DNA from: Nitrospirales bacterium
Lineage (GTDB): Bacteria > Nitrospirota > Nitrospiria > Nitrospirales > UBA8639
Assembly (NCBI GenBank): GCA_963555755.3
Contig: OY820905.2
Location: forward strand, 2,624,001 to 2,688,000
Direction of reading: 5' to 3'
Length of the DNA stretch: 64,000 nt
This document shows positions 13,233-54,813 of this stretch, in pieces (the first letter of the stretch is position 1; every line of letters begins with the position of its first letter). The notes under the pieces are model-generated. The model saw nothing but the letters and a program-made list of their open reading frames with translations, made no database searches and was not told the DNA's origin. A program made the position numbers and the translations under genes.

Positions 13233-13500
13233 TAGTGTAGTGTCCTAAACAGATAGTGCATTAAGTGCGGCCTTCGCCCGGCGGACCTTTTTCAGAATTG
13301 TTTCCGCCGATTTCATCCACACAAACGGTTTCGGGGCCGTATTGTTCTGGGCAATATAGTCGCCAATCGCCGCTTCCAATTCTTCCACGGACCGAAACAC
13401 GCCGCGCCGGATCTGCTTGGCCGTGATGTTGGCGAAAAATCGTTCGACCAAATTCAGCCACGATGAACTGGTTGGGATAAAGTGGAAATGGACCCGCGGG
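13233..13500 (-). mobile_element. IS630 3' fragment (left border of island)
   Basis: End TAGTGTAGTGTCCTAAA and C-terminus matching the full IS630 at 44554; cut by IS1595. Confidence 0.9.
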
Positions 13501-14337
13501 CCTGCATACCGGCTTGACTCCAGTTGCCCCACTATGTAGTGTTTTGCGACATGGTGAGTTACCCCAAGGACATGGCCGATCTGATGACCCGTTTTTTTAC
13601 TGAGGAGGCCTGTCGCACCCATATTGAGAAGCTTCGATGGCCAGACGGGTATACCTGTGTGAAATGTGGGAATCAAAAGAGGTGGAAAACCAAGCGAGGG
13701 TTGTCGATGTGCTCCAGCTGTCAATATCAGCAGTCACCCTTGGCCGGAACGATTTTTCAAGATTCTCGTATCCCGTTGCGCATTTGGTTTCAGGCAATCT
13801 GGTGGTTTACAAGCCAGAAAAATGGAGCGAGCGCTCAAACGTTGCAAAGGGTGTTGGGGATGAGCGGTCACGAGCCTGCGTGGCTCATGCTTCATCAATT
13901 ACGGGTTGCGATGGGTCGCCCCTCCCGCAACCGTCTTGCCGGGCAAGTTGAAGTGGATGAAGCCTAGTTGGGTGGAGAAGGAAACAAGCAACTTGTTGGC
14001 GTTGCCGTGGAAATCAAAGACAAAGGAAGTGGGCGAATGCGAAGGCAAACGCTTAAGGGCCGGACGAGCGCGGATGTCAAGAATTTCGTTCAGCAGCATG
14101 TTGAGCCTGGCAGTACGATTATAACCGACGGACTCACAAGTTATTGCTGTCTGGCAGACGAAGGGTATGCGCACAAACCAATGCGAAAGCCCGATGTTGG
14201 GGGAAATCACGACCCAGACGCGGACAACCTGTTGCCACGAGTCCACCGTGCCATTTCACTGGTGAAACGTTGGCTACTGGGCACATACCAGGGACGCCTT
14301 GATCATAAGTACCTCGACGCCTACCTGAATGAATTTA
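13501..14337 (+). pseudogene. IS1595-family element A, copy 1 (internal TAG, 3' truncated)
   Basis: Near-identical to 23411-24398; TAT->TAG at 13965-13967; interrupted by a second IS1595. Confidence 0.9.
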
Positions 14338-15349
14338 GATGGTTCTACGGTTGACTCCGGTTGAGACAGTTGCGACTATGCAGGTATGGGTCGTCCGCAG
14401 TATCCGAAGGACATGCGGGAATTCCGCCAACGCTTCACTTCACGCCAGGCTTGCCTTGAATATTTGGTGCAGAGTCGCTGGCCAGATGAGTTTGTTTGTC
14501 CAACGTGCACGGGTAAGTCGGCCTGGCTAAACTCCAAGCGTTACGTTTTCGAGTGTAGGACGTGTGGTCGTCAGACTTCGCCTATGGCAGGCACGCTCAT
14601 GCACCGTTCCCACGTGCCCGTCCAGGAGTGGTTCTGGGCTGCTTATCTCGTTACGACCCATACGCCAGGAATCAGTGCCGTCCAGCTCTCACGACAGCTT
14701 GGCCTATCGAGCGCCACCACAGCCTGGCATATGCTGCATCGGCTGCGTCAAGGAATGGTCAACAAGAACCGAAGCCAGCTCTCTGGCTTGATTGAGGCCG
14801 ATGAGGCGATCATCGGCGGACCAGCAACAGGCAAGCAAGGTCGAGGCTCAACTGCAGCCAAGCACAAGAGTTTGCTGATCGGTGCCGTTGAGGTTCTCCC
14901 CTATACTGATAAGAAGGGAAAACAATGTGAACGGGCAGGGCGGTTGCGTCTCTCGCTCCTAAAGGATGCAGGCGAGAGCAGCATTCGTGGGTTTTTGATA
15001 GAAAATATTCAGGCCGGCTCCACACTCCGAACCGATGGTTGGCGCGGGTATTCCGATGCGGCGCTGGTGGGATACAAGCATCGTGTGCGAATTGTTCGGA
15101 CACCGGGGCGAGCGCACAAAGTTGCGCCCCCTATCCACCGGGTCTTCAGCAACCTCAAGGCGTGGCTCAATGGCACGCATCACGGGGTTGAGCCGAAGTA
15201 TCTCCAGAGCTATCTGGACGAGTTTGTTTTCCGCTTCAACCGGCGCAAGACGCCGATGGCTGCGTTTCAAACCCTCCTCGGGATCTCAGTGAATAAAGCG
15301 CCGCTAACGCTTGGCGATCTGGTTAACCGGAGTCAACCGTAGAACCATC
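14338..15349 (+). mobile_element. IS1595-family element B (transposase 14386-15342)
   Basis: IR GATGGTTCTACGGTTGACTCCGGTT; Zn ribbon, EADE, TDGW, YLDEFVFRFNRR. Confidence 0.92.
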
Positions 15350-15359
15350 TAAAATTTTT

Positions 15360-17111
15360 ATGTATCAAAAAATCAAAGAGGAAATTTCCCAAGATTACTA
15401 CCAGCAGAATTTCCCAAACGATGGACAAAGATTTGTCGCTTGGTACCTTAGAAATATTCATCTTCAAGATCCGAATGAAACAAAAGTAGATATTACTGAT
15501 GGGGCAGACGACAAACAAATTGATGCTATTGTGGTCGATGACAATAGCAATAGCGTTTTTATTCTCCAAGGCAAATTTATGGGTGCGGACAAAGTTGATG
15601 CGGAACCTTTACGGGAAGTTCTTTCTTCCTGGATACAACTTAAAGACCTTGTCCGTCTCCAGGAAACCGCAAACAACAAATTAAAACAAAGATTATCCGA
15701 GCTTGCGATTGCCCTTGATGATGAATACGACATTCATTTCGAGTTATTAACCACTGCCACCCTTACCCCCTCGGCAATGAGTGATCTTGCAACATTTCAA
15801 AAACAACTTGCCGATGCGGATGATTTGCCTGCAACTATCCATCTTGTTGACAATGATGAAATTCAGAAACGATATGAAATGGCTCTTGAGAAAGAGCACC
15901 CTGTGCTCAAATTTACATTGCCGCTAGAAAATGGGAAGTTCGTTAGACTGAAGATAGGAGATACACAGACAGTCATTGCCGCGGTACCGCTAAAAGACTG
16001 TCTTTCTTTTCCAGGCGTTAAAGATGGTACGTTATTTCAGAAAAATGTGCGTCAGTCGCTGGGCTTGAGTAATCGCGTGAACAAGGGAATAAAAGAAACC
16101 ATTTATAAGAACAATAAAGAATTTTTCTTCTACCATAACGGCATCACCGCCCTTTGCAACAAAATGGATTTTGATGAATCATCTCAAAATTTGACGTTCA
16201 ACGGTCTCAGCGTTGTAAATGGTTGCCAATCCCTTACCACCATCCTGTCGTGTAGTGAAAAAGTGAAGCAACTTGAAGAGTCTTTTGTGATGTTTCGGTT
16301 CTATGAAATTAAAACACGTGATCGAGCTGATCATATCAGCGTTAACACGAACTCCCAGAGTGCAGTAAAACCACGTGATTTGCGCAGTAATGACAAGCGA
16401 GTTTTAGGTCTTAAAAAACTCTTTGAGCAAAAATATTCTACCGGGTACTTGATTACAAAACGAGGGGAGGAAGCGCCGGCATTAAAAGACAAGAAGTATG
16501 TTTTGGATATGTCAGACCTAGGAAAATATATGATTTCTTGGCATTCCCAAAGACCCAATATCGCATACAGCGAAACGAAAATATTTGATAAATATTTTGA
16601 TCAACTTTTTAAGAGAGACTATAAAGCGGAAAATGCACAATCCCTGAATTTTATGATGCATGGCGTGCGGAAAAGATGGTCAAAGGAGAACCCTTTAGGT
16701 CTCAATGAATCCCTGTTGGCGATGCGCGCCTACGCCCCCTACCATCATTTATTTGCTGTTTCTCTTTGTTTCTGTGTTCTCAATAATATGGCTGAGGGCG
16801 TCCCAAATCCTGCAATCGCTTATGAGAAACTGATGTCCGACTCCTGCTTTGACCAAATTATAGATATAGCGGGCACTTGCTTGAATAGTGCCCTAGAAGC
16901 AGCGGCAAACGAGCCGCAACCGGCCAACCGTGTTTTCAGTCCGCAAAACTGGATCAAAACCAAAGCGTGCCTTTCGGGGATTCGTGCTGCCATAAGGCAG
17001 TATTTCACCATGCTTCCGACGATGCCCAATGGCAAAGAAATGAGCCAAAAAATAAAAATTTCTTTGGCAATGGAGTCATCAGAATTTGAAGCAAGATGGG
17101 CAGCAGATTGA
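15360..17111 (+). CDS. AIPR-family (abortive infection phage resistance) protein
   Basis: DGADDKQIDA..QGK N-domain; LFQKNVR, FFFYHNGIT, VVNGCQS, TNSQSAV motifs. Confidence 0.88.
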   Translation: MYQKIKEEISQDYYQQNFPNDGQRFVAWYLRNIHLQDPNETKVDITDGADDKQIDAIVVDDNSNSVFILQGKFMGADKVDAEPLREVLSSWIQLKDLVRLQETANNKLKQRLSELAIALDDEYDIHFELLTTATLTPSAMSDLATFQKQLADADDLPATIHLVDNDEIQKRYEMALEKEHPVLKFTLPLENGKFVRLKIGDTQTVIAAVPLKDCLSFPGVKDGTLFQKNVRQSLGLSNRVNKGIKETIYKNNKEFFFYHNGITALCNKMDFDESSQNLTFNGLSVVNGCQSLTTILSCSEKVKQLEESFVMFRFYEIKTRDRADHISVNTNSQSAVKPRDLRSNDKRVLGLKKLFEQKYSTGYLITKRGEEAPALKDKKYVLDMSDLGKYMISWHSQRPNIAYSETKIFDKYFDQLFKRDYKAENAQSLNFMMHGVRKRWSKENPLGLNESLLAMRAYAPYHHLFAVSLCFCVLNNMAEGVPNPAIAYEKLMSDSCFDQIIDIAGTCLNSALEAAANEPQPANRVFSPQNWIKTKACLSGIRAAIRQYFTMLPTMPNGKEMSQKIKISLAMESSEFEARWAAD

Positions 17112-17149
17112 GAAGTGGGGTGGCAGGAAGAGAAAAACGTATTAGAGCA

Positions 17150-17380
17150 CTACAAATAATTTGAGACCGCTTCAATATAAGCGCAGTAATTACAATCTGC
17201 TCCCGCTTCAGGAATGATGGCCCCATTTAAGCAGGCATGGGGATCCATGACCGTATTCTCCACCCAATCTGAGTTTCCCTTATAGGGTATGAGGGTGCCA
17301 TCAAACTCCAGCCTGCCATCAAATGCCTGTTTATCGGTTTTCCCATTACAGTAAACAAAATAGCCGGTATCAGGAACTAA
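17150..17380 (-). pseudogene. C-terminal remnant of a PD-(D/E)XK-type nuclease
   Basis: Manual translation TGYFVYCNG..AFDGRLEFD..LIPY.G..DWVE...CNYCAY; no start. Confidence 0.5.
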
Positions 17381-17632
17381 AACGCGAAGAAAAAAAGAAA
17401 GGCTAGGAAAGTAGGGGAGGGCAGTGTAAAAATAGAAGGGAGACGTTCACTCAGTTTAAATGGCAACGAAAGACAAATGATAAAGGCCCCGGCAAAATTA
17501 TTGGCAGAGTATTTCTGGCTCCAGATGAGCAGACGCTACATAAAAGCCAGAAAAGGAATGACCCGTTGGTTTTTAAAAAGGTCTGACGAAGATAAAATTA
17601 TAGATAATAGCTGGAGGAATTAGGCTTATAGG

Positions 17633-17863
17633 ATGAAAGTAAAACTCCACGGTCATATGGATCTCGAACAACTCTCCCACCAGCTTCAACTCGCCATCGC
17701 CAAGCTTCAGGATGCTAATGTTAAATATGTTAAGGGTTGTAATTTTTATCTAACGCCGGTTGACGCTGAAGGCGAGGAAGTCAATGTCTGGACCGGCAAG
17801 AAGAAGCCGACCAAGGAAATTGTAATAAAACTAGATCCCACCCAATCTGTTTTTGAAAGATAA
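17633..17863 (+). CDS. hypothetical protein
   Basis: 76-aa ORF with an upstream purine-rich RBS-like region. Confidence 0.55.
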   Translation: MKVKLHGHMDLEQLSHQLQLAIAKLQDANVKYVKGCNFYLTPVDAEGEEVNVWTGKKKPTKEIVIKLDPTQSVFER

Positions 17864-17895
17864 CGCTTATTTTCCGTCTATATTCAATTAGGGTG

Positions 17896-17946
17896 TTGAC
17901 TAATTTTAATTTACCGGTATGATGCTTTTAAGTACCGGTAAGGAGG
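17896..17946 (+). promoter_or_regulatory. MTase promoter containing two ACCGGT sites
   Basis: TTGACT-16bp-TATGAT; ACCGGT at 17913-17918 and 17934-17939; RBS AGGAGG 17941-17946. Confidence 0.7.
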
Positions 17947-17951
17947 ACACA

Positions 17952-18857
17952 TTGGAAAGCAAGATCGGACCTTTTGAAATCAATAAAGTTGCCCAGGGGG
18001 ATTGCCTTGATTTAATTCCTAAACTCCCTGATGAAAGTATTGATATTTTAGTTACAAGCCCTCCCTATTGGGGACAAAGGGTTTCTAATGGCATGGGGGT
18101 GGAAGACGATCCTAGAGAATACCTTAAGTTTTTAGAAAGAACCTTTGTTTCCTTTCTTCCAAAGCTTAAGAAGCATGGAATTATTTGGATAAACCTCGGT
18201 GATGCTTTTAATACACCAGTGAACTGGAGAGTGGATGACCGGAAATTTAGTTCACTGGGTCCGGATAAAAATGGCCTAAATAAAAACAACTCTGCCTATG
18301 TTAAACCGAGAGCGAAGAGGAAAGCTTTTATTGATGCTGAAGAAAATTGGCTTCGATATGGGAACCTTTTGGCCTTGCCCAATAGGCTTGTTATTTCCTT
18401 GTGTGATAAGGGGTACGTTTTTAGAGGAGAAGTTATTTGGCGAAAGAAAAATCCAATGCCTGAGGGAAGATGCAGACGCCCGCATCGACAACATGAACCT
18501 ATTTTTTTAATGGCAAGGGATGATAATCACTGGTTTAGAGTCTCACCACCAGTGGGAAGTGTTTGGGAGTTTGGAAACGAAAAAATTAACGGAACCGCAC
18601 ATTATTCTAGATTTCCTGAGGAATTACCTAGGCGATGTATTGAAGCTTATGGGTCTGTCGGATCAGATATCGTTGTCTTTGATCCGTATTCTGGCTCAGG
18701 AACCACGGGTTTAACTGCCTTAAAATTGGGATGTTCATATATTGGGTTTGAAATTGACCCTGTTCAGGTTGAGGCCTCTAATGAACGTTTGGAAAGTTTA
18801 GAATTTGAAGACATTCCTCTTCTTAGGAAGAACGGCGGGCTTGCCAGCGCGATATGA
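17952..18857 (+). CDS. beta-class amino-DNA methyltransferase (probably N4-mC)
   Basis: Motif IV TSPPY before motif I DPYSGSGTT; TTG start after AGGAGG. Confidence 0.9.
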   Translation: MESKIGPFEINKVAQGDCLDLIPKLPDESIDILVTSPPYWGQRVSNGMGVEDDPREYLKFLERTFVSFLPKLKKHGIIWINLGDAFNTPVNWRVDDRKFSSLGPDKNGLNKNNSAYVKPRAKRKAFIDAEENWLRYGNLLALPNRLVISLCDKGYVFRGEVIWRKKNPMPEGRCRRPHRQHEPIFLMARDDNHWFRVSPPVGSVWEFGNEKINGTAHYSRFPEELPRRCIEAYGSVGSDIVVFDPYSGSGTTGLTALKLGCSYIGFEIDPVQVEASNERLESLEFEDIPLLRKNGGLASAI

Positions 18858-19974
18858 TGAATCTTGAGAATTCATCATCGGGGTTTTGAAAGTTACATAC
18901 GTAAATTCGTTGCTCTGACGGAAGTGAAGAATTACTGACGCTCGTATTTGAATTATAGGAAAAGCATCCCGTAAAATATCCCTCGTCTTCTATATCTTTT
19001 CGTTTTGCACTTCTTCTGCCACTGGCCTCACCAAGTTCTCCCTTATTTACAGGTTCATCCGCAGGCACGCTTTTACAATCCATGGTCCATAAGGGAGAAG
19101 TAAACCCCGCCTGTTTCAAAGCCGTGCTCATGGGGACATCATCTGTTCTACGCTCGGCAAAACTCGCTTTTACATGAACGACCCCAAAAAACATTTCTTT
19201 CCCTTCAGAATTACCGTTTAAAACAACATCAATTTTATCTGCCTCAATTCGATCTTCTATCTCAAGATTATTAACAAGATTTTGCTTTGTTTCTGAATTT
19301 GCAATGAAAAGGTTTATACCTTTGGTTTTTAGAAAAGGGCCGTAGTGACGAACAAGAACTTCTTCTAAAGCCCAGCCCCCTGTTCGCTTCCAACTTTGTG
19401 TAAAGTCCATTCTGGCAAAATGGGCCGGGTGATTATAAGGATCACAGTAGGCCCTATAAATAACAAACCACCAAAGATCAGAGGGGTTGACATGAGGCCA
19501 AACCTCAACGGCTTTGAGAAAAGCCATGGCAACTGAATCTGATTTTATAGCTTCACTCAAATCGGCCTCTGTTTCTGAAAGACGGGCTAACCCGTCCCGA
19601 AGGGTCTTAATCACAGTTTCAAATTCTTCAACCTTGCCGTTTGGAAGGGTATATTTCGCATCATGTTTGGCATATCGGAAGTGGATAACGAGGTCATTTC
19701 CTACTTGTTCAGCGTAAATAATCCGCTCTATTTCGGAAGCGGCTAGATGGTCTGGAATATCTTCAAGAAGGTCTGGTAGTGAAGAGCCAGTTTGATGAAG
19801 AATGGCCAAAAGCATATCAATACTTGGAATTGTTTCACCGGTTTCAAAACGTGTGATCCATCCTGGGCCTAGGATTAAACGGTCTTCTAGTTGAGCAGGG
19901 GAGAGGCCGGATGTTTCCCGAATTGTTTTAAGTTTATTAAGAAGGGATTTTAAGTAACCCTGGGCCTTACTCAT
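18823..19974 (-). CDS. type II restriction endonuclease (BsaWI/CCGG-family-like) with N-terminal XRE HTH
   Basis: HTH LKTIRETSGLS..LED..ITRFETG; SWKRTGGWALE; DKIDVVL..VHVKASFAERR; convergent with the MTase. Confidence 0.7.
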   Translation of the reverse strand: MSKAQGYLKSLLNKLKTIRETSGLSPAQLEDRLILGPGWITRFETGETIPSIDMLLAILHQTGSSLPDLLEDIPDHLAASEIERIIYAEQVGNDLVIHFRYAKHDAKYTLPNGKVEEFETVIKTLRDGLARLSETEADLSEAIKSDSVAMAFLKAVEVWPHVNPSDLWWFVIYRAYCDPYNHPAHFARMDFTQSWKRTGGWALEEVLVRHYGPFLKTKGINLFIANSETKQNLVNNLEIEDRIEADKIDVVLNGNSEGKEMFFGVVHVKASFAERRTDDVPMSTALKQAGFTSPLWTMDCKSVPADEPVNKGELGEASGRRSAKRKDIEDEGYFTGCFSYNSNTSVSNSSLPSEQRIYVCNFQNPDDEFSRFIISRWQARRSS

Positions 19975-20212
19975 TGAAAAAGTCCTTTGCTGGAATACCC
20001 AGGGTTTTTGCTATTTTTTGAATGTTAACAAGGCTTATATTCCGTTCCCCACGTTCAACGCCACCGATGTAAGTACGGTCCAGATCGCAGGCTAAGGCCA
20101 AAGACTCTTGAGAGAGCCCTGAGGTTTTTTGTGCGCTCTTCTTTTTACGAAGGAGCCGAAGTTCTTCTCCAAAGGCTTTTTTAACCTTGATTTCATATTT
20201 CTCATTTTTCAT
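19967..20212 (-). CDS. RM controller (C) protein, XRE HTH
   Basis: SQESLALACDLDRTYIGGVERGERNISLVNI; overlaps the REase start; C-box upstream. Confidence 0.88.
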   Translation of the reverse strand: MKNEKYEIKVKKAFGEELRLLRKKKSAQKTSGLSQESLALACDLDRTYIGGVERGERNISLVNIQKIAKTLGIPAKDFFNE

Positions 20213-20234
20213 TCTTGTATGTCACCATTTTGAT

Positions 20235-20260
20235 GACAATGAGTCCACGGACTTTAAGTA
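20235..20260 (-). promoter_or_regulatory. C-box operator
   Basis: Minus strand TACT-TAA-AGTC-CGTG-GACT-CAT-TGTC, matching GACT-N3-AGTC-xGTG-GACT-N3-AGTC. Confidence 0.8.
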
Positions 20261-20458
20261 TCTTTTATTTGGGCGGTTTTTTCTGTGCTATTTGAAGTTT
20301 TTCCCGTTTGGGGAGAAAGGCTGCTATATTGATAAACACTCAATTAGAGAAGTACTCACACCCCAAATAGGGATCAACAGATGGCTATGAGTATAGAAAA
20401 ATAATCCAGAATGATATAGTGAAAAGTACTTTTCCAATTTTTTTGGATTTATAGATTA

Positions 20459-20977
20459 ATGGCCATTTCCCAAGCCACTCTTCAGAATTACGCTGGCCGC
20501 GCACCTCTTGGAAAATCGGCTTCTATAGTGAGGGAAGCCAAGATTGCCGGGAAGCAAACTGCCTTTCTTTGCCATAGTCATTTAGACGGTGATTTGGCAA
20601 AGGGGGTTCAAGGATTCCTCCAAGATCAGGGATGGGATGTTTACATTGATTGGGAAGACACAACGCTCCCTGATACGCCAGATAGGATGACAGCAGAACA
20701 GATTCAAAGAAAAGTTCGTGACCTTGATTGGTTTTTGTTCCTAGCAACGGCAAATTCGATGAGGAGTCGTTGGTGCCCATGGGAGATTGGATATGCGGAT
20801 GGAGTTAAGCAATATGATGCTATCCTAATTATTCCAACGACGGATAGTTTAGGGGCCTTTTACGGGAACGAGTATTTGCGACTTTATCGCCAGATTACAG
20901 GAGCAGAAGGTGGAGGGTACGGGGCATTTCGACCTAATAATGGAGGATGCTTGCTTAAAAGTCTTTCTCTCCCATAA
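20459..20977 (+). CDS. TIR-domain protein
   Basis: AFLCHSHLD, VYIDWED, SRWCPWEIG with catalytic Glu. Confidence 0.88.
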   Translation: MAISQATLQNYAGRAPLGKSASIVREAKIAGKQTAFLCHSHLDGDLAKGVQGFLQDQGWDVYIDWEDTTLPDTPDRMTAEQIQRKVRDLDWFLFLATANSMRSRWCPWEIGYADGVKQYDAILIIPTTDSLGAFYGNEYLRLYRQITGAEGGGYGAFRPNNGGCLLKSLSLP

Positions 20978-21009
20978 TGGTGAGTTAGGCGAAGGATAAG
21001 GTTGCTCCC

Positions 21010-43358: not shown

Positions 43359-43369
43359 TGGAGAAATCC

Positions 43370-43818: not shown

Positions 43819-43921
43819 TCCCGTCCACTCTAGCCTCTCAAAGAAAACTACGTATACGCAAAAGCACCATGCCTAGGGCGTTTTGTCGCCTGAAATAATG
43901 TAAATTTTTTTGTCATACCCC

Positions 43922-44523: not shown

Positions 44524-44553
44524 GTGCCAAAAATTATTTACACTTTTTGTAAC

Positions 44554-45746: not shown

Positions 45747-47596
45747 GTGTCTGAGAGAAAACGCCGGTTTTTTCGGGCATGTTCCGGGATATTTTTTCCA
45801 CACCTCTCTTCGGCCTCCTCTGTCGTGCTCACGAACGGCTTTTCTCGTCCACCATTCGTGCCATGTCCTGGATGGGAGCCCTCCCCAGGACGTCGCAGTC
45901 GATTCGTGACAGAGGTCGCCCTCGGGTGCAGGATTCCTTCCGGCAGCTTGCAGCGCTAGGCCGCTTGCTTGAGTTGCGGCTTACGGCGTCGGTCGTGTTC
46001 CAGCAACCGATGGCCAATCTTGTGGAGATTGTACGCCAAGATCCCCAACCCGACGTAGCGCTGAAACCCCGCCCATCCTTTGTCAGGACACCGATTCAAC
46101 CCATGGTGTTCCAAGGCCTTGATGTCCGATTCAATCGCACTGTGCTGCTGCCGTAAGCGGCGAAAGGTCGGCTGCGTTTCCCGGGCCTGATCGGCTTGGG
46201 AACGCCGCCCTTTTTGGGGCATGATGACTTCGGGAATAAACAGCTCGAGGAGTTCGCGATCCTGTTGTGCGCTGAACCCCTTATCCACACTCCAACTCTG
46301 GATCTGGCCGTCCCCCAATCGGGCCAACAGCCGATCGGCGAGAGGCAGGGTTTCCTTCACATCACTGCTCTGGGTCATGATCTTATAGTCCAGGATCAAA
46401 CTATATTGATCCGTGGTGATGAGTAATTTATGGCCGAGTTCCACCGCCGGGGCGACTTTCCCCTTGTTGATCCATTCGGTATGCGGTTCAAACAGGGACA
46501 AGAGTTTGTCGGCAGGGGGAATCGTTTCGCCCTGCAGGACCCGTCGGTCGATAAGATCCAGATGCTTGATGAGCATCTCGTGATAGTATTCCACCTCGGC
46601 CAGGATGTTTTGCTCCAGTAGGGAGCAGGTCTGGGGCCGAAGAAGCAGTAGGCTGGCAAAGACTTTCTGCTCCACCGCGTAGGCTTTCTGCAGATAGGCC
46701 GTGACCGCCGCGTCGAGCCGCTCGCGCTTCTTGGCGCCCCCGCCATGGGAGATTGTCCCACAGGTTCGAAGCAAGGTCTTCAGTTGCTTCCGCCACGTGT
46801 AGGCCTTGCGCCACCCCGAGTGCTCCAGGTGCTGCGCCAGCCGCGGGAGCAAAACCAAACATTTCCGACAGGCATCCCACAGCAGATTCAAATCCGTGGG
46901 GAAATGGACGTTGGTCTCCAGCACGTAGGTATCACTTTTGGCGTGAATGGGCTCGTCGTCTTTTTTTTTAACCAGCGGCCGCCCGGCCTGGACCACAATA
47001 GCATTGATGGCCGCCAAGAAGGCCTCGTCGACGTGGCAGACAGTCTCACTCAACGTCTTTTGATGAAACCCTTTCCCAAACTCTCCACGGAAGGGGGACT
47101 CCAAACCCATGATGCGCCGGAGTAATGTGTCATAGTGAACCAGGTATTCCACCCGGTCATAGTCACAATCCAAGGCGAGGCGGACGACGCCCAGTACCAG
47201 AACATGCCAGAGGTCCATCCCCGGCCGTCCTGTCGCCGGCTTCTTCGTCCCCTGGATCTTCTGTTCCAGCAAGGCAAAGATTTGCTCATTGACGTCGGGG
47301 GTCTGAAAAATCCACTGGAGCCCCCGCAACACCGGCGGCAATTCATCTCGACTCTTCGGGGGAATGGGCACTTCCTCAATTGGGGTCTGCCCTAAGTCCA
47401 ACTGCCGTTCAAATCGTTGCCGCATCGTATCGATCCTCCCTCAACCAACACTGGGCACTCGGTGAATGTTGAGGCAGTTTACACGAAAAACAGGCTGTTT
47501 TCAGGGATTTCTCGCACATACCGTGAAAGATTCACAACCCAAAAACCGAGAAAACCCGCGTCACGCTTAGGCAATCCTGTTTTCTCTCAGACACTA
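45745..47596 (-). mobile_element. ISNCY/IS5-like element, transposase 45956-47425
   Basis: IR TAGTGTCTGAGAGAAAAC; GRPGMDLW, DTYVLETNVHFPTD, DKGF, HSAIES. Confidence 0.85.
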
Positions 47597-48976
47597 ACTA
47601 CTCAGGTGTGGTGAACTTTGTCGTTCAGCGTGTGGGCATAAAGGGGTGGCCGCACATGGCCTGTGAAATGGCTTGCAGGATGTTGCCGCCCTGCTTTCTC
47701 GCCGTCGAAAGATAGCCCCGTATGCGAGCGAACTGGATGGCGCCTGAAAGCGTTCGGAAACAGCCCGAGATTTTGAGGCGGAGCTTGATCATCCGGATAT
47801 CCTGTTCCGCCAGATTGTTGGTGAAAGGCACCTGGTTGTCATGAAAAAACGCCAGCACGGAGGCTTCATGCTCGCCCAGCCGGGCAAGGAGATTTTGGGC
47901 CTTGGTCTTTTGGGGCCGGCCTCGTGTCTTATGCCGAGGCGTGGCCGGCAGGGGGTTGGCCTGCCAACCGAGCGTGAGAAGATCTCGGTACTGTTTCAGC
48001 CACGGGGTTTTCTGTTCTCCAGTTAGCTGTGAGGGGTGCTTGCTGACACACTCGTTCATCTCAAGCAACAGATCAAACCTGCGTTTGGCCCATGGTTGGT
48101 CGTGCTGCTCGAACAGGCACGTCAGTTCACGCAAATGATGGGCGTTACAGAGGCCGTGGGCACAGTCATAGGTGAGAGAGGGTTTCCAGAAGTCGTGGAG
48201 CAGGTGGCCAGAAAAGTCCGGGATGATCTTGAACTCCTCGATCGCCGCTCGTCCCCGTTTTTCATGCACGCCGTAAAAGGTCAACGTGTCGGTGCTGGCG
48301 CTGTGGAGCCAGTGGAGTGTTCCGGCCGTGCGGACACCACTTTCATCGGCATGGAGAATTGGACTCTTGCCGAGAGCCTCGTTGACCGCCGTCTCAAACG
48401 GCGCGAGGTGCTCATCGCATCGACGGGTGGCGTCCACAATGGTGGCGTCGCTGACAGGGGCGCCATACAGGTCAGCCATCATTTGGCTGATGCGGCGCAA
48501 GGGGATCACCTGTTGGTTCTGGAGATAGACCAGGAGGCTGCGAAATCTGGGACCGTACTGTGCCGGCGCAGGCAGGTCATCAGGAAATGACGCCGTGACC
48601 GAGCGGCCGCATTGGGGGCAGGTTTTGCTTGCTCCCCGATATTCGGTGACGTCGAGTGTAGGTTCCGGCAGGTCAAAGAGCTGTCGGCGTTCATAGCCGA
48701 TGACCGTCTCGTTGGTGAGGTCGGCATGGCAGGAACAGGAGTGAACGGGCAGTGTGACACGGTGGGCTGGGTGTTCCACCTGCTTCAGAGTCTGGCCGGG
48801 ATGCCCCGTTTGGCCGCCCGGCTTTTTCCCGGACGGTGTGCGCAGGCTCGTGGTTCGGGGCTTGGCTGGTCCATCGGACGAGGGCGGCTTACTCCTGTTT
48901 CGACTGGTTGTGTCGAGCCGCTGCTTCAGGTCGGTGACTTGCGTGGTCAGCGCCTGCACCTGTTCCTTCAGCGCCA
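47595..48976 (-). pseudogene. IS66-family transposase, 5' truncated
   Basis: SKPPSSD, HADESG, CNAHHLREL, FTNNLAEQDIR, ISGCFR; end TAACTACTCAGG. Confidence 0.88.
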
Positions 48977-48977
48977 G

Positions 48978-50288
48978 GGGGCTTGTCAAGTTAACTGTGT
49001 AACTGAATTGTGGGCTAGATTGTTGGCACTCGATCTCCTAAGAACATGGCGAATTGGTTGAGAGCCCGCTTCCAGTGCGGAATGGGCATCGTCCATTTCT
49101 GCGCAATCCGCTGCATCCCTAAATACCGCACCTTCAGAATTGATTCATCTGTCGGAAAGGCTCCCCGACTTTTCAGGACTTTGCGTAACGAAAAATTCAC
49201 CGATTCGATCGCATTGGTGGTATAGATGGCTTTCCTGCTTTCTGGGGGATAATCAAAAAAGATCGTGAGCCGACTCCAAGGCCGTCGCCACGTCGCACTG
49301 ATCGTCGGATATTTCGCATCCCACATGGCGGCAAATGTCTCCAACGCGCTTTCCGCCTCCGACAACGTCGCGGCGCCATAGATGGCTCGTCGCTCTTTCC
49401 ACACCACATACCGCAAGGATTGCCGTACCTTATGCACAATGCACAGTTGCACCTGGGTGTGTGGGAACACCGTCTCCAAGGCTTCTGGCAAGCCCCCACG
49501 CCCAGCAACGCAAGCCACAAAACAATCCCGGACCCCGCGCTGCTGGAGTTCGGTGAAGATCGACAGCCAGAACTTGGCCCCTTCGGTCTCACGGATCCAG
49601 CGCCCCAGGAGTGCTTTCTCTCCCTGTAGATTCACCCCTAAGGCCCCATACACGGCTTTATTCTTGACGACGCCCTCCTGCCGAGACTTCACACACAGAC
49701 AATCGAAGTACAGAATCGGATACACGGCATCTAAGGGCCGACGCTGCCAGAGGCGCACATCCTCCCACACCGCATCAGTGATGGCCGAAATGAGCGTGGG
49801 CGACACCTCCACGTCATAGAGTTCTTCCAGATGCCCTTGAATGTCGCGAGTCGTCAGCCCTCGGGCAGACAACGCCAGGACCTTCTCATCAAACCCTTCC
49901 ACGCGCCGTTGGCGTGTGGGCACCAACAGCGGCTCAAAGCTGCCTTGACGATCACGGGGCACCTGGAGCGGGAGATCCCCGTGGGCCGTCTGCACCGTTT
50001 TCGACGTGCTCCCATTGCGGGCATTGCCGGATCCACGGCCCTCAGGGGCATGAGGGGCATAGCCCCAATGCTCGGTCAGTTCTGCCCGCAGGGCGCGTTC
50101 TACGAGCCGTTTCGTGAGACGCTTCACCAGCCCATGTTTGCCGAATATGTCTTCGGGTGACGCACACCCTTCCCATAGCTCATCTAACAGCACATCGGTT
50201 TTGCTTGGGGTCTTGGCTCTGGTCATCAGTCCTCCTTCTTCAATGGATCCGTCATGATAACCAGTTACACAGTTTATCTTACAGGCCC
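48978..50288 (-). mobile_element. IS256-family element (transposase 49015-50226, degenerate)
   Basis: IRs GGGC(T/C)TGT..AACTGTGTAACTG; RNG, QLCIVH, IYTTNAIES. Confidence 0.9.
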
Positions 50289-52329
50289 CTTCCCGACGAT
50301 TGTCCCGAAGCAGCACCTGCGCATTGCCGCCGTGGTCATCGCGGTGATACGCACTTATCCCACCTAAGCCCACGGCGCCCGAACGATGCTGGCGGCCCTG
50401 GGGACAGCGATTCCGTCAACGCGCGGTGGCGCGTGCCCCAAGCCCGTCTCCACCCGCTGACACCCCGGCTCCCTACGAACGCCGCCGTCCCGAAGAGACC
50501 ACGCTCTACCAGGTGAGCCAAGATCACGTCGACACCTTCTTGGCCCAAGTCGAACAGGAAACGGGGTCGGGGCTGCCTCAGTTTGTCAAAGACGAGTTCG
50601 AGGCATTTCTGGAAGGCGGGATCTGAGGGCTCGCGAAACAATACCTTCCCAGAATTCGCGCCCAGATTTGGGGCAGATTGAGTCGAGCTGAGGGAGCAAA
50701 ACCGCAGGCGTAGCACCGCCCACGTGGAGGATTGTGCGAGTGAAGATCGGCTCAAGATGGCCTGAAGCTGGGATGCGAAAAGGGGAAGGTATTGTTTCGC
50801 GAGCCCTGAGCGCACGGGGTTCTGCGCCTGCGATGTGGGGACTGCGCCCATGAGAAGCTGGTGGCCTTCTCCTGTAACCGCCGCGGGTTTTGCCCGGCCT
50901 GTGGCGCCAGACGCATGGCCGAGACTGCCGCCCATCTGGTGGAGCAGGTGATCCCTCACGTGCCCGTGCGCCAATGGGTGGTCTCGTGTCCTATCCCCTT
51001 GCGGCATCTGTTCGCGACCCAGCCGCAGCGGCTTTCCCCGGTGTTGCAGGGCATCCACCGCGCCCTCTCGACCTTCGTGATCCACCACGCCGGCTTGCCC
51101 CATGCCCAGGCGCAAACCGGCGCGGTGCCCCGCATCCAACGCTTTGGCTCCGCCGCGACTCTCAACATTCATCTGCATTGCCGGATGCTCGATGGCGTCT
51201 ATCGCCTCACCGACGGGGTCCCGATCTTTCAGCCCGTGCCGGCCCCTACCGCTGACCAGCTTCAGGCATTACTCACGCGGATCATCACGCGGCTGCTGAA
51301 GATGCTCACGCGCCAAGGCGCGCTCATGGAAGAAGTCTCCGAGATTCCGTATCTGACCAATCCCGATGCCGATCCCGCCTTGGCCCCGCTGCAGGCAGCG
51401 GCTTGCACCTACCGCATTGCCCTTGGCCCCCGAGCCGGCCAAAAAGTGCTGACGTGGAAAGATCCATCATTGCGCCTGGCCAGTCAGGAGGCGCCACAAT
51501 CAAAGGGCGGTGTCAGTGCGCAAGGGTTCAGTCTGCATGCGGACACATGGTGTGGTCCCCAGCCGCGACAACAACTCGAACAGCTCTGTCGCGACATCAC
51601 CCGTCCGGCCTTGGGCCACAAACGCCTGCGCCGGACACCAGCCGGCGAGGTCGTCCTCCAACTCAAAACGCCGTATCGCGATGGCACCACCCATCTGGTG
51701 ATGAGCCCACTGGAATTCCTGCAACGCCTCGCGGCCCTCGTCCCGCGTCCCCGACTCCCTCTCATTCGCTTCCATGGCGTGCTGGCGCCCAACGCGGCGC
51801 TGCGGTCCCAGATCGTGCCCGGCGAGGCCGATCAGGCGACGGACCCCGCCAATGAGGAGGGCGATGCCCTCGCTCCTTCAACACGAGCCCGCCTAAACTG
51901 GGCGCAATGACTCAAACGTGTCTTCGCCATCGATATCACCACCTGCCCGCAGTGCGGCGGGCCATTGACCATCCTCGCGGCGATCGAGGATCCTGCGGTG
52001 ATCATCAAGATTCTCACGCACCTGGGCTTGCCGAGCCAAGCCCCACCACGAGCCCCGGCCCGCCTCGACGCGTTCATGCAGACAGCCTAAGCTTCCACCT
52101 GGATTCCGGTTCGGGGCCCGAACCGACACCCCCCCTTTGCCCAGTTCCCCTTCGCACACGCCACAATGGTGCGTCATGCTGGGCCTGATCCATGGCAAAA
52201 GAGCCAGTCAGGCCCGTCGCGCAGGGTCATTCCTTCATGGCAGACTCTGGAGTTGGCAGATTGACCCCACAATGAGGTCTTTGGTACTTTCCGGTTCAGT
52301 CAAAAAGGGCTTTTAAAATTCCTATTCCC
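50289..52329 (+). mobile_element. IS91/ISCR element copy 2 (lexA 3' end, MITE, broken transposase, oriIS)
   Basis: Near-identical to ~40795-42844. Confidence 0.9.
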
Positions 52330-52478
52330 GGTAGCAGAATAATTTCCCACCGTAGGCAGACTTCCAGCATCTCCTCGCCGATGCCTAATCGAGCACAGAT
52401 TTCTTCTCGGCGCATCATGCCTTGTGTGATGATTTCTGCCGTGACTTGTTCCAGTGTGGGTGGGGATTCGTCATTCAT
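52330..52478 (-). pseudogene. CbpM-like chaperone modulator, 3' truncated at oriIS
   Basis: MerR-like EEICARLGI..L..WEII; coupled to the DnaJ-like gene. Confidence 0.55.
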
Positions 52479-52719
52479 GGGTGGCCTCACGAAGAAGGGA
52501 TGAACGGGGATCAGGATGATCGAATTTAGCTAATTGTTCGTATAGATGGCGCTCTTCGGACGAAGGTGTTTGGGGTGTCATAATTTCCAGCACGACAAAT
52601 TGGTTGCCATGGCCCCCTGCTCGTTTGGGAAGCCCCTTTCCTTTTAAACGCATACGTTGTTGCGGTTGACTGCCGGGAGGAATTTTTAGTCGGACAGATC
52701 CGGATAGAGTGGGCACCTG
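52471..52719 (-). pseudogene. DnaJ/CbpA C-terminal fragment
   Basis: VPTLSG.V.LKIPPGSQ..RMRLKGKGLP..GNQFV..P. Confidence 0.8.
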
Positions 52720-53092
52720 TCCCACACTTCCATCAATTCTTGTGGATGAATCGCAAAAAAGACTTCAACACACTCTAGATGTAAGTAACAATGCGGCCCA
52801 AAAGATCCAGCAGTCTATAGAAGATATGGCCATAGAATGGGGTCTCAAACAGTATCCACGGAAACGTGAACAATCAAAAGAAGCTGCTGAATTAATGTAT
52901 GGTTCTATACTTGCTGATAACTCTAATTGGCTATTTGATTTAAACGATGAGGATCGTTCTTACATTGAAAAGATGAAAGCGGAACTAAGAAAATCACCAA
53001 ACAACCCGTTTACCCTTTCCATCTCGAAGCACCAACTCTTAAAGGCAATAGCCATTTTAGAATTAAATAAAGGAGGTATTATTAATGTCTGA
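52720..53092 (+). pseudogene. AT-rich hypothetical gene, 5' truncated
   Basis: Open frame starting at the TCCC junction; composition switch. Confidence 0.5.
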
Positions 53093-53450
53093 ATTTGACA
53101 AGAAATTTGATAAATCATTTAACAATACAGTTAAAGATGAAGGCGAAATACCTATAGACGCGAAAAAGACGGCTATCATGGGTGGCGTAGCAGCTGGTGC
53201 GACAGCGGCGGGTGGAGCTGCAGCCGTTGTAGCAGCCGTCGGAACTGCTAGTACCGGAACTGCAATTGCAACTCTAAGCGGTGCAGCTGCTACAAGCGCT
53301 ACTTTGGCTTGGCTTGGAGGGGGAGCCATCGCTGCGGGTGGCGGAGGTGTAGCATTGGGCGCTGCTATCCTCACTGGTGGAGGAGCTGTTGTTGCTTGCG
53401 GTGTTGGCTACGGTCTCTACAAATGGAAGTGCAAGAAATTGAAAAAATAA
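53085..53450 (+). CDS. Gly/Ala-rich glycine-zipper membrane protein
   Basis: AGGAGG RBS; GTASTGTAIATLSGAAATSATLAWLGGGAIAAGGGG. Confidence 0.75.
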   Translation: MSEFDKKFDKSFNNTVKDEGEIPIDAKKTAIMGGVAAGATAAGGAAAVVAAVGTASTGTAIATLSGAAATSATLAWLGGGAIAAGGGGVALGAAILTGGGAVVACGVGYGLYKWKCKKLKK

Positions 53451-53603
53451 GCCTTCACCTAAATAGAGTTCTCACTGATCTTGGTATTACAGGTGATGGT
53501 TGGGGAATGTATGGGCACTTCCGTTAAAATACTTAACAAATTGCATAAGCTCGGGTATTTTGCTCTGCTACGTGCTTCAAAAATTCCGTTTACGCAGGTC
53601 TTT

Positions 53604-53680
53604 AATGTCTGCTTTCAGTATGAAGCGGACATTAGAGTTGATTGTGCTTGAACGTCCGCTAACCAGCGAAAGCGGACATT
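53604..53680. repeat. pair of REP-like hairpins
   Basis: AATGTCTGCTT..AAGCGGACATT and AACGTCCGCT..AGCGGACATT, 47-bp period. Confidence 0.65.
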
Positions 53681-53689
53681 CGGATAATT

Positions 53690-54813
53690 TCACCGACGGG
53701 GTCCCGATCTTTCAGCCCGTGCCGGCCCCTACCGCTGACCAGCTTCAGGCATTACTCACGCGGATCATCACGCGGCTGCTGAAGATGCTCACGCGCCAAG
53801 GCGCGCTCATGGAAGAAGTCTCCGAGATTCCGTATCTGACCAATCCCGATGCCGATCCCGCCTTGGCCCCGCTGCAGGCAGCGGCTTGCACCTACCGCAT
53901 TGCCCTTGGCCCCCGAGCCGGCCAAAAAGTGCTGACGTGGAAAGATCCATCATTGCGCCTGGCCAGTCAGGAGGCGCCACAATCAAAGGGCGGTGTCAGT
54001 GCGCAAGGGTTCAGTCTGCATGCGGACACATGGTGTGGTCCCCAGCAGCGACAACAACTCGAACAGCTCTGTCGCGACATCACCCGTCCGGCCTTGGGCC
54101 ACAAACGCCTGCGCCGGACCCCAGCCGGCGAGGTCGTCCTCCAACTCAAAACCCCGTATCGCGATGGCACCACCCATCTGGTGATGAGCCCGCTGGAATT
54201 CCTGCAACGCCTCGCGGCCCTCGTCCCGCGTCCCCGACTCCATCTCATTCGCTTCCATGGCGTGCTGGCGCCCAACGCGGCGCTGCGGTCCCAGATCGTG
54301 CCCGGCGAGGCCGATCAGGCGACGGACCCCGCCAATGAGGAGGGCGATGCCCTCGCTCCTTCAACACGAGCCCGCCTAAACTGGGCGCAATGACTCAAAC
54401 GTGTCTTCGCCATCGATATCACCACCTGCCCGCAGTGCGGCGGGCCATTGACCATCCTCGCGGCGATCGAGGATCCTGCGGTGATCATCAAGATTCTCAC
54501 GCACCTGGGCTTGCCGAGCCGAGCCCCACCACGAGCCCCGGCCCGCCTCGACGCGTTCATGCAGACAGCCTAAGCTTCCACCTGGATTCCGGTTCGGGGC
54601 CCGAACCGACACCCCCTTTTTTGCCCAGTTCCCCTTCGCACACGCCACAATGGTGCGTCATGCTGGGCCTGATCCATGGCAAAAGAGCCAGTCAGGCCCG
54701 TCGCGCAGGGTCATTCCTTCATGGCAGACTCTGGAGGTGGCAGATTGCCCCCACAATGAGGTCTTTGGTACTTTCCGGTTCAGTCAAAAAGGGCTTTTAA
54801 AATTCCTATTCCC
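53690..54813 (+). mobile_element. IS91/ISCR element copy 3 (3' half and oriIS; right border of island)
   Basis: Near-identical to ~41720-42844. Confidence 0.9.

Follow-up and report, generated by a model that had tools for sequence, protein, structure and literature searches.

A polarised series of ISCR ori ends among foreign DNA fragments in a Nitrospirales chromosome: candidate serial capture by one element

The closest described relatives of the locus reported here are complex class 1 integrons, in which, according to the cited portions of PMC7707992 and PMC6218425, ISCR1 is accompanied by variable DNA captured on its ori side and then by a partial duplicate, and in which such units can stand in tandem in multiple copies. 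IS801 and IS91 undergo one-ended transposition and leave miniature ori-end derivatives, 5'-truncated copies that retain ori and lack a target site duplication (TSD), and they can mobilise neighbouring DNA and act in trans, as set out in the parts of PMC3189936 and PMC13181058 cited here. Helitrons are HUH rolling-circle elements that gather fragments of unrelated genes (PMC4778049, cited in part), and nonhomologous end joining (NHEJ) at breaks takes up linear foreign DNA without homology (PMC6379672, also cited in part). The mechanism by which ISCR elements acquire ori-side DNA, which bears on the spread of resistance genes, rests so far on models and not on demonstration. The island described here resembles, or on our reading would resemble, each of these systems in the respects just named; with ISCR1 it also shares a 48%-identical transposase and a homologous ori end, and capture by end joining could explain those of its seams that lack an element. 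A search of full texts, mostly outside subscription journals and confined to the main text, found no polarised ori-stub arrays with phage cargo.

We analysed a 64,000-nt stretch of a 4.6-Mb Nitrospirales chromosome (the window), part of which had been predicted to be a patchwork of truncated segments with abrupt shifts in composition. This description was borne out. The island spans 41.6 kb, its GC content shifts abruptly between 32 and 72%, and the four top-ranked 41-kb intervals for GC variability in the chromosome all lie within it. It contains ten non-IS pieces totalling 15.9 kb, none of which has a second copy elsewhere in this genome, and 43% of it is IS sequence. A conserved host HEAT-repeat gene forms the left flank (12491..13171, + strand), and in 13 of 14 relative loci it lies at most 250 bp from the counterpart of the host gene on the right flank (57026..57673, - strand; its 90% cluster includes a Nitrospirales bacterium protein). 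The comparison with related genomes that the original prediction called for showed that 13 of 14 relatives lack the island between these two genes; an unrelated ISL3 rearrangement is found at the site in the closest relative. The predicted right end at 54,813 marks the end of the array, but relative to these genomes the insertion reaches about 57,000. No tRNA or tmRNA target was found at the island.

The organiser of the island, which the original prediction did not mention, is an ISCR-type (IS91-family) rolling-circle element. Its transposase is 48% identical to that of ISCR1 over 357 aligned positions (48-49% to ISCR1, ISCR2 and ISVsa3) and contains the PF04986 (Y2_Tnp) and PF14319 (Zn_Tnp_IS91) domains above cut-off. 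Scores of 334 and 491 against the NCBIfam clade Ia model lie below its cut-off of 925, so the element falls outside clade Ia. Some 230 bp beyond the transposase gene lies the ori end, which matches the ISCR1 terminus in sequence and distance, and the element has neither terminal inverted repeats nor a TSD. Five ori ends of one private variant, retaining 38, 57, 1124, 2041 and 2588 nt, are present; all copies of this variant lie inside the island, and the remaining 27 of the 32 ends in this genome differ from it. The longest copy (40257..42844, +) comprises a lexA-like passenger gene with an operator palindrome, the HUH transposase gene and the ori end. Two 5'-truncated copies retain ori, one of 2041 nt (50289..52329, +), which is 97.4% identical to the longest, and one of 1124 nt (53690..54813, +), which shares 99% identity with both other long copies and forms the right end of the array. 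The 38-nt stub (24570..24607, -), inverted along with its segment, and the 57-nt stub (26611..26667, +) are 100% identical to 42807-42844 and 42788-42844, respectively. A probable 7-nt remnant, TATTCCC (32888..32894, +), sits exactly at the seam between a GC-rich block and a tail-sheath fragment; it was spotted post hoc (chance about 0.003), at a seam that contig ends place at 32887.

In the longest copy, the transposase gene carries a 188-bp hairpin insertion and a premature TGA, and the conserved single Tyr of the ISCR-type motif, which we take to be the catalytic residue, is replaced by Asp. This Asp occurs in all three island copies and in 11 of the 12 copies in this genome that cover the motif, the hairpin is present in every copy that covers the N-terminus, and no intact transposase was found in the genome. 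Judged by these lesions, the island's own transposases are dead. The Tyr is retained in genomes G002, G006, G016 and G063. At the terminus opposite ori, four copies in this genome start at CTTGA plus a palindrome, a motif that also precedes stand-alone lexA-like genes, and the G016 and G063 copies start elsewhere. The lexA-like gene was rejected as a constant component of the element: none of the ten closest-homologue loci had a linked transposase gene, one of them holding only a 20-aa transposase scrap.

The ori ends border fragments, and they are co-oriented once an IS1595 inversion is undone. Two IS1595A copies (23411..24398 and 25570..26557, both +) delimit it, the right flank of the first being the reverse complement of the right flank of the other, that is, a split 8-bp TSD. 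Undoing the inversion aligns all ori ends and reopens the frame of a coding fragment of unknown origin, piece Z, whose two parts (24399..24569, -, and 26558..26610, +) rejoin into 216 bp with one stop-free frame, bracketed by two stubs. Pfam and atlas searches returned no relatives of piece Z. The unit of the array runs ori, fragment, shortened copy, ori. Foreign or truncated DNA directly follows four of the five ori ends, and no continuation of that DNA was found across the ISCR element. Nine of the 20 fragment ends adjoin an ISCR end (seven without the post hoc 7-nt stub), five adjoin other ISs and six are unexplained. The longest copy sits in the middle of the array, not at its head. Taken alone, co-orientation in this genome is weak (p 0.03-0.06); a replichore bias was rejected as its cause, as none was seen here (17 of 29).

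The junctions share no sequence signal that we could find. CTTG/GTTC was present at none of the 24 array flanks, which showed no base preference, and at none of the 32 ori flanks listed for the genome, and we found neither a common motif at stub starts nor a terminator-like tetranucleotide where cargo or stubs begin. Folding of the terminal 75 nt of ori is no better than that of shuffles (z 1.17). Short ori motifs are in weak excess downstream of ori ends (14 versus 6, two being known ends), and a possible new ori flank among loose contig ends was traced to a mixture of two copies already known in the genome.

Between these ends lie fragments of several sources. The 5' part of a tail-fibre-like gene with GNVGIGT repeats (22176..23410, -; PHROG E 2.5e-13) is cut at the left end of IS1595, and a 304-aa stretch of it is also present on a JGI contig. 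A T7-like phage fragment (24608..25569, -) encodes a truncated exonuclease followed downstream by two small genes, the second of which ends abruptly at the ori stub; the exonuclease matches PHROG 107, is about 50% identical to those of Autographiviridae-type phages and lacks its N-terminus. After a filler of about 60 bp comes a GC-rich mobile block (26668..32887) with a 5'-truncated gene, a TerS-like gene, a garbled Sel1 gene and a tyrosine recombinase. An AT-rich stretch from within a tail-sheath gene (32895..33258, -) is 47% identical over 55 aa to a Pfam-confirmed sheath on a 157-kb phage contig. An AT-rich block (34897..37937, -) holds four ORFans, two of which are paralogues behind a 114-bp repeat, and an OMP beta-barrel gene with a frameshift. 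It abuts, at a contig-bridged seam at 37937, a GC-rich piece (37938..39443, +) with a 5'-truncated ORFan and a 3'-truncated repeat protein. Farther right are a phage-like late fragment (42845..43830, +) with a 5'-truncated cupin, a small membrane protein, a lipoprotein and a small secreted protein, a host-type BrnT/BrnA toxin-antitoxin pair (43957..44479, +), the 3' end of cbpA with the start of the next gene (52330..52749, -; host-like composition, right boundary approximate) and an AT-rich gene pair followed by two short palindromes (52750..53689, +). Truncation was evident against full-length homologues for the exonuclease, for the 26764 ORF, which retains residues ~100-283 of a 283-aa homologue, and for the 38622 ORF, which has 274 aa where its five best homologues have 721-2162 or 438-786 aa.

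PHROG, Pfam and viral homologues agreed with the identities first proposed for the tail-fibre-like gene, the exonuclease, the TerS/Sel1/recombinase block, the sheath, the cupin (36% identical to a cupin on a viral contig) and the cbpA C-terminus. Other assignments fared less well: the tail-fibre-like label of the GC-rich gene near 38 kb is weakly supported, one of five scanned homologues matching tail families; the AT-rich block is foreign as proposed, but its phage identity is not established; and the cbpM part of the supposed cbpAM piece has no Pfam match. With T7-like, sheath-bearing and bacterial pieces of 36-70% GC, the island is not one decayed prophage. Some cargo is 98-99% identical to DNA of an unrelated bacterium and of a sample without this organism. 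In the unrelated genome G031, the counterparts of 31612-32618 and 27660-27846 (98.7 and 99% identical) are isolated scraps of the GC-rich element, 1007 and 187 bp long, and sequencing run X1, the one mapped among 18 small-share runs, lacks this organism's core genes and contains pieces of both the GC-rich and the AT-rich block. A search of IMG/VR for donor phages yielded only ~50% relatives of the exonuclease, two weak sheath and two weak cupin matches, and no match for ORF 37444; the best metagenomic match of the OMP protein was 36% over most of its span. Contigs of 34.6 and 40.9 kb that carry the T7-like protein were rejected as donor phage genomes, because the same sizes recur for OMP, TerS, PEP-CTERM and IS-chimeric proteins.

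Other ISs are interleaved with these pieces: nested debris of an IS630 end, part of IS1595A and IS1595B (13232..15353), a broken IS256 lying within the remaining 249 bp of an ISL3 end (33259..34896, +), half a copy of IS630 that meets the GC-rich piece in mid-gene (39444..40147, -) and a stack of IS630, ISNCY, truncated IS66 and IS256 (44553..50288, -). MITEs keep their 4-bp TSDs as predicted (three of three copies checked in the window), but the accompanying claim that the ISs mostly lack TSDs is weaker than it seemed. ISCR makes none, IS256b has none in three copies outside the island too, the full IS630 keeps its target, and one 8-bp IS1595 TSD is present but split by the inversion; outside the island, two of three full IS1595-family copies have 8-bp TSDs.

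Polarised ori series recur in other members of the family. In G063, an intact transposase heads an array of four shortened copies (1447, 266, 551 and 653 nt, with 0-1 mismatches); five of its six ori ends fall within 31 kb, genes are cut at ori, and the cargo is not a copy of sequence in the same genome and was for the most part not found in four congeners. G016 has 16 of 18 ori ends within 82 kb, 15 of them on one strand, and G040 has five co-oriented ends in 31 kb. The cargo in G063 and G016 consists of ordinary bacterial genes. Outside the genome studied here, 23 of 27 neighbouring ori pairs (at most 20 kb apart) are co-oriented, a result that loses significance (p 0.11) under an assumed 70% strand bias and comes from a test in which related genomes are not independent. 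Very short end duplications also occur, of 8 nt in G005 and 16 nt in G016.

The layout, the local identity of the copies, their co-orientation, the absence of junction motifs, the recurrence and the foreign origin of several pieces are all directly observed, and they are consistent with a stepwise capture that we infer, chemistry included, from the sequences. The HUH transposase would nick at ori and keep hold of the 5' end, while the freed 3'-OH would let host polymerase re-copy n nt of the element. The held end would then pass to the 3'-OH of stray foreign DNA, either debris of phages or neighbours' DNA that the cell had imported (ComEC is intact and, at 99% completeness of the genome, no Ku was found), and the far end of the fragment would be joined to the stalled new strand. 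The product would be ori, the fragment, the last n nt of the element, and ori again next to the old flank; n would range from 7 to more than 2000, and neither terminator nor target motif would be required. Since the island copies share three inactivating lesions, the transposase presumably acted in trans or earlier, and later IS1595, IS256, IS630, IS66 and ISL3 insertions, inversions and deletions may have removed or rearranged parts. No donor sequence across an ori seam was obtained, so an exact switch at the stub is putative. We put it at about an even chance that one ISCR-type element captured the foreign fragments in place, one by one, with IS erosion later; the original idea of a locus that serially traps foreign DNA is supported by the unrelated sources and by the polarised ori series at many seams.

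The published model for multicopy ISCR1 integrons (PMC7707992, in the part cited) offers another route, whereby a shortened copy transposes beside cargo in a donor and a read-through circle then recombines into a resident copy. It predicts the same order of ori, cargo, shortened copy and ori, and fits the 1124-, 1447- and 2041-nt duplicates. However, stubs of 38 and 57 nt (also those of 7-16 nt) offer RecA little homology, cargo and stubs do not start with the terminator-like tetranucleotide reported for IS801 minis (PMC3189936, cited in part), and every unit would need two ordinary transpositions of a variant that is absent from the rest of the chromosome. We consider this route unlikely. It is similarly improbable, in our judgement, that mobile elements simply accumulated at an intergenic location that tolerates insertion and then lost sequence through IS-adjacent and illegitimate deletions, with the stubs as passengers. 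The high IS content, the 11 of 20 fragment ends without an ISCR end, the ISL3 rearrangement in the closest relative and the scraps in G031 all favor such decay, as does the view, in the cited part of PMC3189936, that IS801 fragments in P. syringae are mostly recombination products. Other shortened ori copies are scattered through this genome, in accessory DNA generally, so the stubs could be late arrivals. Yet decay does not predict the near-identical stubs, facing one way and confined to one region, that follow an intact head copy in G063 and G016, nor a 216-bp piece between two stubs.

It is highly unlikely that real pieces of different strains or community members were chained by the assembler via shared repeats. 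Several observations could point that way: OMP, Sel1, IS256 and ISCR stretches differ from sample contigs at many letters, no IS is spanned by a sample contig, the short side of four seams measures 28-30 nt (under the 31-nt requirement), and piece depth ranges from 21 to 100% of core-gene depth and differs from piece to piece, which suggests that the island varies between cells. Against this, all 30 of 30 island bins were covered in three of the six organism-holding samples (X19, X20 and X22), from two studies, in both mappings. The seam at 37937 lies inside a single 1328-nt contig in all three organism-holding samples examined, and the stretch from the cupin (from 42845) to BrnTA within one 1766-nt contig in three samples, at depths of 28-114, so that the check for junction artefacts was passed locally; sample contigs were placed on the parts of the island outside 13.2-31.4 kb and 44.6-52.2 kb. 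Variants of island proteins, including an IS1595-exonuclease chimera, occur on contigs of 40,945, 133,650, 34,608 and 16,664 bp, and their recurrence at equal sizes, taken as the same contig, suggests other assemblies of the same island. That the fragments serve as a store for guiding or priming defence against phages, as the original prediction speculated, is barely credible. At least three pieces are phage-like, growth by insert plus end duplication formally resembles spacer acquisition, and an intact defence cluster (15360..21921) adjoins, with AIPR/AbiU, a type II methyltransferase, restriction enzyme and C protein, and a TIR (ThsB), PDC-M50A and TIR group. However, much of the cargo is non-phage, in G063 and G016 as well as here, and the transposase is dead. 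Candidate CCGG-family sites were not depleted, so a restriction-fragment origin of the pieces was rejected and nothing links the cluster to capture. The predicted absence of Argonaute from the window extends to the genome (no Piwi-domain or Argonaute protein), but Cas1 and a CRISPR array are present outside the window; the 54 inter-repeat stretches gave no match to the island beyond 14-18-nt chance hits, and a simple scan at one ori found no outward sigma-70 promoter. An immune-memory role is therefore unsupported.

The cargo is most probably neutral, by-catch gathered without selection, and the stubs are shorter than the recombination step of the standard model would need. At this locus, gene scraps that match DNA of unrelated neighbours at 98-99% identity have entered a chromosome, and they vary between co-existing cells. 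Because the near-perfect array of G063 is headed by an intact enzyme, the capture question is directly testable. More tentatively, and with considerable doubt, we suggest that ISCR elements may be stationary, homology-free DNA traps, in which ori is linked straight to stray DNA from phages or from across phyla and re-seals by copying as few as 7 nt of the element's own end, building polarised, roughly time-ordered archives of the DNA that a cell has encountered. Such traps would offer distant horizontal transfer a general route with no need for a terminator, target motif, RecA or Ku, and here would record the mobile DNA of a host-associated community.

Set against the known systems, the island departs from each as they are described in the cited parts of the sources. 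Unlike ISCR1 integrons (PMC7707992, PMC6218425), it has no integron or 3'-CS (intI1, attI and 3'-CS were absent among the 64 window proteins scanned, the sole tyrosine recombinase lying in the GC-rich cargo), it is chromosomal, what is duplicated is the ori end of the element itself (7-2041 nt), and its cargo is mostly broken phage and symbiont DNA rather than selected resistance genes. IS801 and IS91 minis end at a terminator-like tetranucleotide and insert at CTTG/GTTC (PMC3189936, PMC13181058), whereas the array flanks have no such site and the stubs no shared motif; the island enzyme has a single ISCR-type Tyr motif, and its stubs pile up at one locus. Helitrons are eukaryotic and helicase-fused and take host genes by terminator bypass (PMC4778049), whereas the cargo here is foreign and ori-side. 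NHEJ capture requires Ku and LigD and gives no polarised end copies (PMC6379672), and this genome has no detected Ku. The capturing agent is a known kind of element, and the island represents ISCR gene capture in a new form, not a new archive system.

The island (13,232-54,813) stands out within its genome (G000; 4.62 Mb in two contigs, 99.4% complete; the window is 2,624,001-2,688,000 of contig C1), as the chromosome's top four 41-kb windows for GC variability all fall here (SD 0.095-0.097 versus a median of 0.035), which confirms the abrupt composition shifts of the original prediction. Unique foreign pieces make up 38% of it, ISCR sequences 14%, other IS elements 29%, and a defence cluster 16%; none of the foreign pieces has a second copy elsewhere in the genome, and a search of six congeners recovered no piece lying between 34,900 and 44,550. 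When we ran the proposed comparison with related genomes, the host flanks proved to be close neighbors: in 13 of 14 relative loci, no more than 250 bp separates a HEAT gene from the gene at 57026-57673, and the fourteenth, in the closest relative (G005), carries an ISL3 element and a rearrangement at the same spot. We therefore regard ~44 kb as an insertion at a permissive site. One flank protein falls into a cluster with a protein named from a Nitrospirales bacterium. Elsewhere on contig C1, at 3,854,000-3,864,500, a second foreign block rich in GC (65-73%) contains a giant repeat protein that is broken and lies next to IS1595 copies.

IS elements are indeed interleaved with the fragments, as predicted, but the IS91-family element among them had not been singled out. 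This member of the ISCR group has a transposase 48% identical to that of ISCR1 and a 3' terminus matching ISCR1's ori end. BLAST finds 32 such ori ends in the genome, and a pattern search 33. One ori variant is private to the island, where all five of its copies lie (38, 57, 2588, 2041, and 1124 nt, each retaining the ori end); the nearest copy outside is 90% identical. Four of the island's ori ends point in the + direction and one in the − direction. To the right of each of two IS1595 copies (23,411 and 25,570) lies the same 8-mer, in reverse complement at one of them; as this IS1595 family makes 8-bp target site duplications at other sites, we conclude that the segment between the copies is inverted and that the split 8-mer is the scar. 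Tn10 provides an example of this sort of deletion-inversion. Undoing the inversion by script aligned the fifth ori with the others and restored, between the 38- and 57-nt stubs, a piece of 216 bp that has a frame free of stops (Z; 24399..24569 plus 26558..26610). At the seam between the GC block (26668..32887) and the sheath piece (32895..33258), which was positioned by contig ends in sequencing runs X20 and X1, the seven bases after 32,887 are the final seven of the ori, a match noticed post hoc with a chance of ~0.003 over six seams. The order before inversion was then T7-like piece (24608..25569), 38-nt stub, Z, 57-nt stub, GC block, 7-nt stub, sheath piece, and onward to the longest copy, cupin block (42845..43830), 2041-nt copy, cbpA scrap (52330..52749) with AT pair (52750..53689), 1124-nt copy, and host, with every stub or copy ending in its ori before the next piece. 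Among the 20 ends of ten pieces, 9 lie at an ISCR end, 5 at another IS, and 6 at nothing recognizable. The 57-nt stub starts at the same base here (26611) and in another family genome, G016 (locus L292, ~8786), just past the loop of a short ori-region hairpin, and ~70-nt stubs starting at the other arm also recur. After the AT pair, two short GTCCGCT...AGCGGAC-type palindromes (53600-53685), the second shared with other sample DNA as contig ends suggest, may be a cassette-like repeat.

A similar layout recurs in related genomes. We searched 61 family genomes for the ori end by pattern and found it in 18. In G063, five of six ori ends lie within 31 kb on a single strand, with an intact transposase at the head followed by copies of 1447, 266, 551, and 653 nt (0-1 mismatches); the cargo includes genes cut at the ori, has no duplicate in its own genome except IS, and, when sought in four congeners, turned up there only as an RHS piece and a single stretch of 510 bp. 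G016 has 16 of 18 ori ends within 82 kb, 15 of them on the + strand; the second cluster there begins with an intact transposase and has stubs of 57 to 367 nt. G040 has five same-facing ends in 31 kb. Behind the intact transposase of G016 (L292, 4087-5269), a 394-bp unit of fragment plus ori stub shows threefold tandem amplification. Clustering exceeds random placement in G063, G016, and G040 (p < 1e-5) and in G000 (0.002). Outside G000, 23 of 27 neighboring ori pairs are co-oriented (20 of 24 minus a tandem amplification), in genomes that are kin and not independent; within G000, ori ends show no replichore bias (17/29). Three congeners (G002, G005, and G006) offer smaller cases, in which an ori adjoins genes absent from G000. 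The other ori clusters in G000 likewise sit in accessory DNA, a location predicted by capture and passive accumulation alike, and one that counts against specificity. Elsewhere in G000 (L269, 11505-12239; C1 ~33.5-34.2 kb), an AT-rich gene resembling a pseudouridine synthase, with an 82% match in G002, lies between two co-oriented ori ends.

The island's copies show local identity, a single polarity once the inversion is undone, and variable stub lengths. A capture process producing this layout would begin with an HUH transposase nicking at the ori; the enzyme-bound end would be passed to foreign DNA, and the fragment's other end would be joined to the stalled new strand, duplicating n nt of the element's end. 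End duplications of 8 and 16 nt occur at other loci. Alternatively, in the route described for multicopy ISCR1 (PMC7707992), two aberrant rounds yield a circle that is rescued by homologous recombination. This route gives the same product and suits long duplicates, but it fits less well with short stubs and with the absent target or terminator motif, as CTTG or GTTC was found at 0 of 24 ori flanks. ComEC is intact in G000, and Ku was not found in the genome.

We found no intact ISCR transposase in G000. Among island copies covering each site, two of two carry a 188-bp hairpin insertion, three of three a premature TGA, and three of three Asp in place of a conserved Tyr; with dead transposases, the row is therefore either a relic or driven in trans. 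The same hairpin element (96-99.5% alike) occurs in every G000 ISCR copy covering the N-terminus (window 41136-41323 and 50623-50810; C1 498k, 757k, 762k, 4363k, and 4372k), and the spread of a dead lineage over several loci implies mobilization in trans. The TAC-to-GAC (Tyr to Asp) change is present in 11 of 12 G000 ISCR copies whose mutual likeness is just 79-90%. Where IS copies differ from one another, A:T/C:G transversions are abundant (81/100 for IS256b), a pattern that we take to resemble a mutT-type spectrum. A passenger lexA-like gene (40257-40872) has a GAAC-N4-GTTC palindrome adjoining a TTGACA hexamer, motifs that could place the downstream transposase under SOS-type control.

The claim that the fragments come from unrelated sources was borne out. 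Phage relatives at 34-52% exist for four pieces (T7-like, sheath, tail-fibre-like, and cupin), and the cbpA scrap, whose composition resembles the host's, shares 62% identity with a family member's gene. Two stretches of the GC block recur as isolated scraps in an unrelated bacterium, G031 (6.2 Mb), one of 1007 bp (98.7%) and one of 187 bp (99%), and the ORF at 26764 is the final two thirds of a 283-aa gene complete on an 8.7-Mb contig. Run X1 has zero cover on core genes, yet it matches the integrase block, and the AT block (34897..37937) in part, at 98-99%. Differing sources and near-identical matches thus indicate several donors and some recent transfers, and because G031 likewise carries scraps of the GC element, fragment patchworks may be common in the community. 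The G031 scraps (L192 and L193) adjoin IS and restriction genes. Given that X1, listed as a sponge metagenome, has these long matches to two pieces, and that the next relatives of the cargo integrase are Poribacteria MAGs, we infer a sponge-associated habitat.

Could the patchwork be an assembly artefact? Six runs (three samples, two studies), one sample of which may be the assembly's own source, contain 75-79% of the sequence words drawn from the 31.5-39.5 kb stretch. We compared contigs of one run per sample (X19, X20, and X22) and of X1 with 31,450-44,600 and 52,250-63,900. All 30 bins of both stretches were covered in the three samples, and single contigs bridge both the AT-to-GC seam at 37,937 (1328 nt; depth 114, 70, and 41) and 42,816-44,581 (depth 101, 53, and 28). 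At seams 32,887, 33,258, 42,844, 52,329, and 52,749, the short side of contigs is just 28-30 nt, under our 31-nt threshold for spanning, as expected where repeats break contigs. Locally, coverage speaks against an artefact; long-range order is supported only indirectly. Contigs of equal length (40,945, 133,650, 34,608, and 16,664 bp) carry variants of the IS1595-exonuclease chimera, a small T7-like gene, TerS, OMP, MTase, and a PEP-CTERM protein, and we read them as other assemblies of the island. Many mismatches between the window's OMP, Sel1, IS256, and ISCR letters and the samples' contigs make base-level detail in those repeats unreliable. In several assemblies, the OMP gene (35066-35998) is frameshifted at about one point; it diverges by ~10% between them, unlike its neighbors (99-100% identical), and is either hypervariable or a garbled consensus. 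A 136-bp deletion variant at 36043-36180 occurs in X20 and X22 (depth 61-68) and also in X1. Against core-gene depths of ~268, 107, and 70 (each averaged over three contigs), island pieces range unevenly from 0.21 to 1.0 (sheath, 0.23-0.34; cupin block, 0.38-0.50; AT block, 0.74-0.95), and host accessory genes also vary (0.37-0.92). The samples therefore hold several strains, and the island is, as a whole or in part, either polymorphic or shared with neighbors.

The speculative immune-memory role was not supported: Cas1 and an array of ~32 or more repeats lie 1.3 Mb from the island, no spacer matches it, and no Piwi protein was found in G000. The defence cluster beside the proposed capture locus is intact, although no test ties it to capture. 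At 20459-21921, a TIR-membrane protein-TIR arrangement matches two PADLOC models, PDC-M50 and ThsB, with no accompanying ThsA. We consider the cargo most likely to be neutral by-catch.

Tandem capture by ISCR is already known from resistance loci. IS91 is described as inserting without target site duplications at CTTG or GTTC (PMC13181058), whereas neither adjoins any of the 24 ori flanks compared here, and the ISCR1 ori is reported to have a promoter (PMC6218425), while a simple scan of one ori here found none facing outward. In IS801 minis, the end is marked by a terminator-like tetranucleotide, and the majority of natural IS801 fragments were attributed to rearrangement (PMC3189936). A full-text literature search turned up no account of polarized ori-stub arrays that contain phage scraps. 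To the known cases the locus adds support from reads, variability within the population, near-identical cross-phylum cargo, stubs ranging in length from 7 nt up to 2041 nt, and a clean replicate whose enzyme is intact.
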